Made by a program: the position numbers and the translations under genes. The notes below the pieces were generated by a model. It made no database searches. It was not told the DNA's origin and was given only the letters and a program-made list of their open reading frames with translations. DNA of 64,000 bases from Centroscyllium fabricii (lineage: Eukaryota): the NCBI GenBank assembly GCA_051313645.2, contig JBNRSN020000010.1, positions 158,286,001 through 158,350,000 of the forward strand. Reading direction: 5' to 3'. Below are positions 35,892-36,380 of this stretch, one piece after another (within the stretch, counting starts at the first letter, position 1; each line of letters begins with the position of its first letter).

Positions 35892-36380
35892 CAGGTTGAG
35901 CACCGGTAATCCGTGACCCGAAACGCCGGCAGCTTCAGTCTTCCGGAACAAATTGCCCCGACTGCACTACGCATGCGCAAAATGGCAGCCGCGATCTCGG
36001 CTTCGGCGATTGATCTGCGCATGCGCCGCCGAACGGCGAGTGTGCGCGCAGATCATTCAAAACGGCTGCCGGACGAGCCGGGCCTTCCGTGGCGTCAGGG
36101 CGCGGCAGCTCGCGCCGCGTTTTGAATGTGCGAGTCCCGAGCGCCCGCCATGGTGAAGCGCGCGGTTCCCCGGAGCAGCCTGCTGGCCGTCATCAGGAGG
36201 CACAAACCGCAGCTGAGACTCAGCAAGGGCGTTCGACAGCCATTTCCAATGTTGTGCGCATGCGCGCGGCCATTTTGAATGGTGCACACATGCGCACTGA
36301 CCGACTTCATTCTGCCGGTTTTTTCACTTTCCTGGCACGGGCCTGGTCCCCCCCGTGCTGGATTTACAGTGCTCAACCTG
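35892..36380 (-). mobile_element. Pack family copy 9 carrying CENPW 5' end
   Basis: TA|caggttgagcaccggtaatccg ... gtgctcaacctg|TA; arms are the reverse complement of copy 6 arms. Confidence 0.9.
36150..36233 (+). pseudogene. CENPW: Captured CENP-W N-terminal coding fragment (MVKRAVPRSSLLAVIRRHKPQLRLSKGV)
   Basis: gcccgccATGG Kozak; resembles CENP-W KRKAPRGFLKRVFKRKKPQLRL / MRRTVPRGTLRKIIKKHKPHLRL; cut off at element arm. Confidence 0.78.

Follow-up and report, generated by a model that had tools for sequence, protein, structure and literature searches.

A pogo/Tigger-type element with the 5′ end of CENPW in about ten thousand copies, a very probable multicopy Pack-TIR of Centroscyllium fabricii

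The locus considered here raises the question of how the start of a host gene came to lie between the arms of a short repeat, and how far this arrangement has spread. The window, that is, the whole stretch of 64,000 nucleotides of Centroscyllium fabricii DNA that was analysed, had been read as containing a CENPW start codon region captured in one repeat copy at 36075..36240, between arms matched by another copy. Positions 35892-36380 are occupied by a 489-bp non-autonomous element of pogo/Tigger type with terminal inverted repeats (TIRs) of ~22 bp and TA at both flanks (Table 1), and the second copy was indeed present, at 10145-10742, with alignment of the arms at 87-92%. With the flanks rejoined around one TA, the sequence aligns to paralogous copies of an older repeat; 3 of 10 matches run across the junction, where they have no gap, and the element is thus identified as an insertion accompanied by TA duplication. 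The palindromes GCGCATGCGC and the AAATGGC repeats of the left arm we take to be NRF1- and YY1-like, and the TIR presumably resembles that of mammalian Tigger4. Placement within pogo/Tigger is suggested by TIR and TA; family rank depends on the transposase, and the window element differs from Tigger transposons in being non-autonomous. Common to both are the TA duplication and TIRs of ~20 bp (18-23 bp as listed for Chondrichthyes) described for the Tigger family of pogo (PMC9219625). About 10 members of the same TIR family are scattered over the 64-kb window, complete or partial ones being found also at 5-54, 1357-2023, 16478-16603, and 22089-22579. The window further contains two LTR retroelements at 49869-54386 and 55865-60548 with direct repeats 100% and 98.7% identical, respectively, the first having an open frame of 1,326 codons.

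The source of the interior was sought in the genome itself. Of 1,357 candidates from a profile search with Pfam CENP-W (PF15510), 150 were scored and a single one exceeded the cut-off, namely the internal exon C1:428969638-763 (exon 2; 48 bits vs. the Pfam cut-off of 25), and exon 1 was located 10.7 kb upstream of it within the 100 kb examined around exon 2; three exons, when joined, give 77 residues in frame. Exon 1 turned out to be arm-free, supplied with a splice donor and positioned upstream of exons 2 and 3, in agreement with the capture originally proposed. The host-derived part of the element, 36086-36234, aligns to C1:428958824-977 with 87.0% identity over 154 columns (blastn), including a 5-base gap, so that the core of the predicted interval stands and its edges do not, 36075-36085 being element sequence. 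The ATG at 36150 lies exactly in the expected context gcccgccATGG and is followed by 28 codons for the peptide MVKRAVPRSSLLAVIRRHKPQLRLSKGV, which matches parent exon 1 by 82% over 28 residues (tblastn, E 1.7e-11 in 100 kb). Taken alone, this peptide is a weak witness: in Pfam, CENP-W is the sole family reported, at E 0.007 and 17 bits, below the cut-off of 25, and 4 sequences are matched in PDB, all CENP-W, with best E 0.001; compared with the genome's own exon 1, its resemblance to the CENP-W N-terminus is certain. The piece was supposed to end at the arm, which holds for the homology and not for the frame, running 14 codons further to TGA at 36276-36278 (42 codons in total).

Table 1. Coordinates of the element at 35892-36380, its captured segment, the MSL3-carrying sister element and the parent CENPW gene (positions without prefix are those of the window).
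Feature	Position	Strand	Basis or remark
TA target-site duplication, left	35890..35891	.	rejoined-flank alignment
Left TIR, ~22 bp, starts CAGGTTGAG	35892..35913	+	TIR comparison, exact-match family count
Left arm, common to sister elements; palindromic GCGCATGCGC and AAATGGC repeats	35892..36085	+	arm alignment
Captured CENPW 5′ segment, 149 bp, GC 0.68, CpG o/e 1.09	36086..36234	+	parent G000:C1:428958824-428958977
CRE-like site, TGACGTCA in parent, TGGCGTCA in window copy and main subfamily	36090..36097	+	alignment
CDE/CHR-shaped site, CGCGCC, 4-base spacer, TTTGAA; parent arranged alike	36111..36126	+	
42-codon frame, of which 28 codons are CENP-W and 14 arm sequence, followed by TGA	36150..36278	+	
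Right arm, terminating in right TIR	36235..36380	+	arm alignment
Right TIR	36359-36380	+	4 mismatches vs. left end over 24 bases
TA target-site duplication, right	36381..36382	.	rejoined-flank alignment
Sister element, same TIR, MSL3 exon 1 (coding ~17865-17767), donor and ~300 bp of intron	17057..18414	-	Pfam, PDB
Parent CENPW exon 1, coding	C1:428958893-985		31 codons, donor GTGAGC
Parent CENPW exon 2	C1:428969647-760		38 codons
Parent CENPW exon-3 candidate	after C1:428992366		8 codons and stop

The captured piece begins directly before the TGACGTCA palindrome (a CRE-like site), spans CGCGCC-4-TTTGAA and the ATG, and holds 28 of the 31 exon-1 codons, ending 8 bases before the last base of the exon; hence the splice donor is absent from the element, as is the parent sequence upstream of the CRE-like site. 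These boundaries bear on the direction of transfer. Members of the TIR family do occur 10 kb downstream (in intron 1) and 17 kb upstream of CENPW exon 1, as might be expected if the exon had been derived from the element, but such a reverse course is hardly credible: the parent retains three more codons and the donor, which the element lacks, and the peptide aligns to the CENP-W N-terminus in four PDB sequences. BLAST with arm sequence gave no match in C1:428942246-428968857, so none within 10 kb of parent exon 1, and a loose TIR scan allowing up to 7 mismatches gave one match ~450 bp downstream of the parent ATG, devoid of adjoining arm sequence. Another member of the family, L029:8774-9372, is inserted in CENPW intron 1, 270 bp before exon 2; the interior that it shares with window 4715-5336 (type C) has the motifs CACGTG and GACGTCA as well as an ATG frame, for which no Pfam or PDB match was found (window 5073-5252).

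A truncated processed pseudogene, or another retrocopy inserted into the element, would be compatible with a piece lying entirely inside the likely first exon or just upstream, and retrocopying does take place in this genome, where a processed copy of MSL3 exists (L188). Retrocopies usually lose the extreme 5′ end, and here only the extreme 5′ end is present; exon 2 and a long target duplication are lacking, and neither an exon-exon junction nor poly(A) was found in the captured CENPW piece. Since the MSL3 cargo of a sister element described below includes a donor and intron, capture at the DNA level is indicated, and a retroposed origin appears very unlikely.

Although the capture had been regarded as a feature of one copy, it in fact defines a lineage with copies numbering about ten thousand. 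For a 22-mer taken from the coding sequence, 5,109 exact matches exist in the genome, one of which should be the parent gene; a degenerate 22-mer from the 5′ part, not matched by the parent, has 7,852 (0 for the reversed control in both cases). Within the range common to both match lists on contig 1, 45 of 68 matches of the coding 22-mer also belong to the 5′ list, giving an estimate of 11,350-11,870 copies, which unequal copy ages would bias downward. A DNA search returned 708 candidates, and the 40 of these that were scored lie at 96-100%. As for the integrity of the copies, a TIR lies within 900 bp of each of the first 30 matches by position (both TIRs in 24), and both TIRs were found at 42 of the 50 loci examined, 35 of these 42 having TA at both ends and different flanks; the sampling by position covered the first 52 Mb of a single contig. 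The TIR family as a whole is much larger, its pattern having 93,646 exact genome matches (control 0).

Did all these copies descend from one event? Among 66 distinct copies, the left junction is kept in 62 and the right in 61, while the 5′ UTR is shorter than the parental one by 5 bases in 59 and has the longer parental form in none, the remaining copies being deleted or unaligned at the respective place. Because both junctions and the 5-base UTR shortening are common to the copies, the capture happened once. Mapping of the breakpoints against the parent locus, as had been suggested, revealed 3-bp microhomology at both junctions, TCC on the left and TTC on the right. Sister elements with tandem-repeat interiors have the 12 bases preceding the left junction, ending in TCC, with which the parent segment starts; contigs show arm-to-arm forms with the right arm starting with TTC, with which the parent segment ends. 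Junction states devoid of CENPW thus occur in sister elements and contigs, and the microhomologies would lend weak support, as they are read against an inferred pre-capture state.

The later history is partially recorded in two diagnostic sites, which are in the derived state in 54 of the 66 copies and in the parent's state in 5. Contigs of organism A span the left junction (X1 records 3 and 4, X2 record 12) as well as the right one (X7 record 31), and in the three runs of this organism the diagnostic sites are nearly all parent-like, vs. ~11-13% by summed contig depth in run X3 of organism B; depth is not equal to copy number, that of organism A may include the CENPW gene itself, and organism B, as the possible source of the assembly, is not independent. 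The simplest reading, assuming that A is another species and that horizontal transfer did not take place, is that the capture predates the A/B split and that the derived subfamily grew afterwards in the line of B. From their consensus, the copies (31 rows) diverge by a median of 6.3%, which falls to 3.5% when CpG sites are left out. At a mutation rate of 7e-10 per base per generation (PMC10587355) the latter value would correspond to ~5e7 generations, which is not credible; this dating was rejected, and for that reason no age is assigned to the capture.

What has become of the copies was assessed in two sets of 30, picked by the non-coding and by the coding pattern and overlapping in about half of the loci. 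For the first set, pN/pS equals 1.01 (109 and 35 changes), or 1.15 without CpG, and the ATG with an open frame free of indels is preserved in 17 of 30. For the second set, substitutions in the CHR amount to 5 of 174 sites, compared with 28 of 918 nearby. Transitions at CpG reach 10.0% vs. 2.3% at other C and G, that is, decay is accelerated 4.4-fold, and an elevated rate of this kind is expected under germ-line methylation. In these samples, the bulk of the copies appears to evolve neutrally, without sign of selection by the host; the tests pool 30 copies, recount subfamily-wide changes and are blind to a few functional copies among thousands, which would escape detection. Neutral decay combined with methylation-like loss of CpG suggests that the CENPW piece is most likely carried as a passenger.

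Nevertheless, the piece includes a motif of potential regulatory significance. The TTTGAA at 36121-36126 was initially proposed to be a CHR cell-cycle element, with the reservation that similar words occur in the arms. Its origin is confirmed: the aligned place in the parent has TTTGAA, so the gene, rather than the arms, is its source; a CHR role is predicted only. Parent and window copy alike have CGCGCC, 4 bases, and TTTGAA, which agrees with the pattern published for the CDE, with the most frequent form of the CHR and with a spacing of 4 bases between them (PMC4176359, PMC5729532); the site is located 29 bases ahead of the ATG. CENPW is also included in a gene table of a DREAM review. Speaking against a CHR is the row for human CENPW in Table S3 of PMC4176359, which reads TTCGAA_0.869_+_26, a conserved variant with binding flags 0000. 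A CHR in the parent CENPW is thus plausible. In the copies, TTTGAA is intact in 25 of 30 and CDE core together with CHR in 13 of 30 (set picked by the coding pattern), so that thousands of intact sites are expected genome-wide, and plant MITEs spreading E2F sites can affect nearby genes (PMC13317346). One might suppose that the host has recruited a subset of copies, which would serve as G2/M (DREAM/MuvB) promoters or enhancers, provide alternative first exons, or give rise to small RNAs directed against CENPW. This is rather unlikely: the CHR is kept no better than neighboring sequence, TTTGAA or its reverse occurs twice in the arms as well, the donor was not captured and onward splicing from the piece's own site is precluded, and the parent sequence beyond the CRE-like site is missing upstream.

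CENPW is not the only cargo of this TIR family. The minus-strand sister element at 17057..18414 carries MSL3 exon 1, whose frame is recognized by Pfam as MSL3_chromo-like (E 3.5e-10) and in PDB (E 7.8e-14). This lineage comprises more than 100 copies (the 40 scored, out of 220 candidates, lie at 92-100%), both TIRs being found at 12 of 15 MSL3-carrying loci, and some of its copies have another 440 bp upstream. An exact MSL3 22-mer gave 36 matches, which is not a copy count, the low value probably being due to a minor variant held by this word. In the Pfam search for MSL3, 150 of 216 candidates were scored, and nearly all were exon-1 pieces. The parent exon 1 is absent from the 60 kb beside the best Pfam match, L188 (G000:C933:166639444-629, -), which was rejected as parent, being a processed MSL3 retrocopy with stop codons; L102, considered because of the lack of TIR matches, turned out to be a disrupted element copy. 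The TTTGAA within the MSL3 cargo sits in the intron and was dismissed as a CHR. Pfam scans of 79 and 37 frames yielded credible matches to MSL3 and to the transposase domains of L170 only, and CENPW and MSL3 are the only gene pieces identified in the family by these comparisons.

Other interiors are abundant. L154:2375-3078 (G000:C335) opens with the beginning of the CENPW capture, in its derived state, and has the same right-arm start, enclosing a different interior with a donor-like site; since the start of the capture is retained around other sequence, this suggests serial replacement of cargo within the family. With 1,274 first-look candidates, the best 40 of them at 98-100%, it looks like a young lineage, the arms being checked in L154 only. 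Another stretch, L154:1330-2050, has the left arm of the family fused directly to a pogo DDE fragment, by capture or deletion. The interior of L220:24-575 (also in L264-L293) has 2,427 candidates, a donor-like site near its start and both TIRs at 25 of 30 loci. L092:726-1524 (-) contains GGCGG, 4 bases, and TTTGAA followed by ATG, a second CDE/CHR-shaped site, and L251:284-1565 is a relative with a different end. Type B (window 10145-10742 and 62613-63494) is GC-rich and the commonest in the sample of complete TIR-sampled elements (22 of 72), whereas types E and D consist largely of tandem repeats. No parents were found for the L220, L154, L092, B, and C interiors, which are not claimed as gene captures.

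This diversity raises the possibility that the captured 5′ end is cargo favored at the level of the transposon, a CpG-rich promoter-like interior keeping the element open or active in dividing germ cells so that it is copied more. Indeed, amplification is seen for CENPW (~11,000 copies), MSL3 exon 1, and the two interiors with donor-like sites; among bat Helitrons, those carrying a promoter or first exon had higher copy numbers (PMC4224331), and multicopy Pack-TIRs prefer GC-rich DNA (PMC8277862). The supposition is nonetheless doubtful, because the dominant subfamily (54 of 66 copies) has lost the perfect CRE-like site, the arms are themselves CpG-rich (o/e 1.16), CpGs decay 4.4-fold faster, and CENPW-type elements constitute only 2 of the 72 sampled, compared with 22 of type B, 19 of type E, and 8 of type D (2 more are L092-type and 19 unlabelled). 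Equally tentative is a broader proposal, by which the TIR family, with at least 93,646 exact ends, would be a promoter-harvesting system repeatedly swapping 5′ ends from housekeeping and cell-cycle genes, with cargo aiding the spread, thousands of intact CDE/CHR sites, and some of these binding DREAM/MuvB or driving G2/M transcription of neighbors.

The enzyme that mobilized the family was searched for among loci matching DDE_1. None of the 50 inspected out of 150 listed has the same TIR at both ends. L170, 2.3 kb long, is a candidate mobilizer: its open frame of 619 residues contains CENP-B_N, HTH_Tnp_Tc5, and DDE_1, and an end of the element matches 17 of 24 bases in register. L170 and L169 (G000:C800 and C823, respectively) are pogo elements with open frames of 619 and 618 residues; L170 adjoins a zinc-finger frame, and the two have the same flank, with which they were probably duplicated. 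Loci with clear ends were rejected as partners, belonging mostly to a pogo family of 2.3-2.8 kb with another TIR, which dominates the DDE_1 matches (L140, L145, L150, L153, L158, L162, L171, L177, L179, L180, L184, and L187).

Taken together, the data make it very probable that the element is a multicopy Pack-TIR, i.e., that a pogo/Tigger-type element captured CENPW once, was then transposed genome-wide and has been decaying neutrally. The process may be imagined as starting from a break inside a short non-autonomous element, in the course of replication or after excision, whose repair would have switched template to the GC-rich CENPW 5′ end and copied ~150 bp between two 3-bp microhomologies. 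The chimera arising from this single event, as the common junctions and the 5-base UTR shortening show, retained both TIRs and was moved in trans, presumably by a pogo transposase, into TA sites until about 11,000-12,000 copies were formed; an older parent-like subfamily appears also under the second organism label, and the derived one dominates in this genome. In the samples, the copies decay neutrally, losing CpGs like methylated DNA, and the TIR family seems to have exchanged its interior repeatedly, MSL3 exon 1 included.

Animal cut-and-paste gene capture has been described as rare and almost always single-copy. Among 370 Pack-TIRs from 100 genomes, four multicopy cases are reported, with examples of three and five copies, and in a frog a 291-bp CAPSL 5′ UTR resides inside a hAT element (Tan et al., 2021; PMC8277862). 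In that screen, TE ends had to be annotated and the best parental match had to be unique (PMC8277862), from which we infer that high-copy cases could be missed and that the published rarity may partly reflect the method. By the definition used there, the internal sequence between ends of the same element (149 bp) lies within 100-5,000 bp, its length relative to the 154 parental bp falls within 80-120%, the parental copy is not bordered by the TE, and the same chimera occupies distinct target sites, as in the multicopy class; identity of the window copy to the parent (87.0%) is below 90%, a threshold of youth with no bearing on mechanism. The CENPW element is a multicopy Pack-TIR in its structural definition, missing only this youth cut-off as judged from the alignment. 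The animal Pack-TIRs described there likewise have host DNA enclosed by the two ends of a single TIR element, a parent free of arms, distinct targets, short microhomology, and GC-rich 5′ cargo; the difference is in scale, with at least 7,852 and ~11,000 copies from one event, and in the pogo-type element.

Comparable numbers are known from bat Helitrons: HelibatN3 spread the promoter and first exon of NUBPL in about a thousand copies, and the captures from 54 genes and 16 other regions add up to 12,382 copies (Thomas et al., 2014; PMC4224331). Like the present family, these are vertebrate DNA transposons amplifying 5′ ends of host genes, with 5′ bias and serial capture, but they are rolling-circle elements devoid of TIRs, and the single CENPW lineage is approximately as numerous as all bat captures combined. 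In Brassicaceae, E2F sites were picked up and dispersed by MITEs (Henaff et al., 2014, via the review PMC13317346); alike is the MITE-borne dispersal of a cell-cycle regulatory site, whereas there the hosts are plants, the cargo is a short motif and effects on neighboring genes are reported, and the CENPW site is accompanied by a traceable parent exon. A further parallel comes from rice. Pack-MULEs, elements of the Mutator superfamily that have long TIRs and duplications of 9-10 bp, likewise gather many gene fragments per TIR family, with GC-rich bias and often in multiple copies, but from many parents at low copy each, vs. few parents at very high copy in the CENPW/MSL3 family. The process is already known; its scale is new, as are the cargo and the recurrence of captures within a single pogo family of a vertebrate. 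No prior report of the element or of CENPW capture was found in the literature searched, most subscription papers and Repbase/Dfam lying outside its scope.

In practical terms, copies of the element will confuse annotation of CENPW and MSL3, read mapping and repeat masking, and masking may hide the real CENPW exon 1. For the biology of the family, a single capture, traceable to an essential gene present once in the genome, has given about ten thousand copies, and MSL3 represents a repeat of this by the same family. The origin of multicopy Pack-TIRs becomes testable through the known parent, the dated subfamilies, and the empty forms and serial replacements, and thousands of natural copies of one cell-cycle site offer a means to ask when a moved site gains function.
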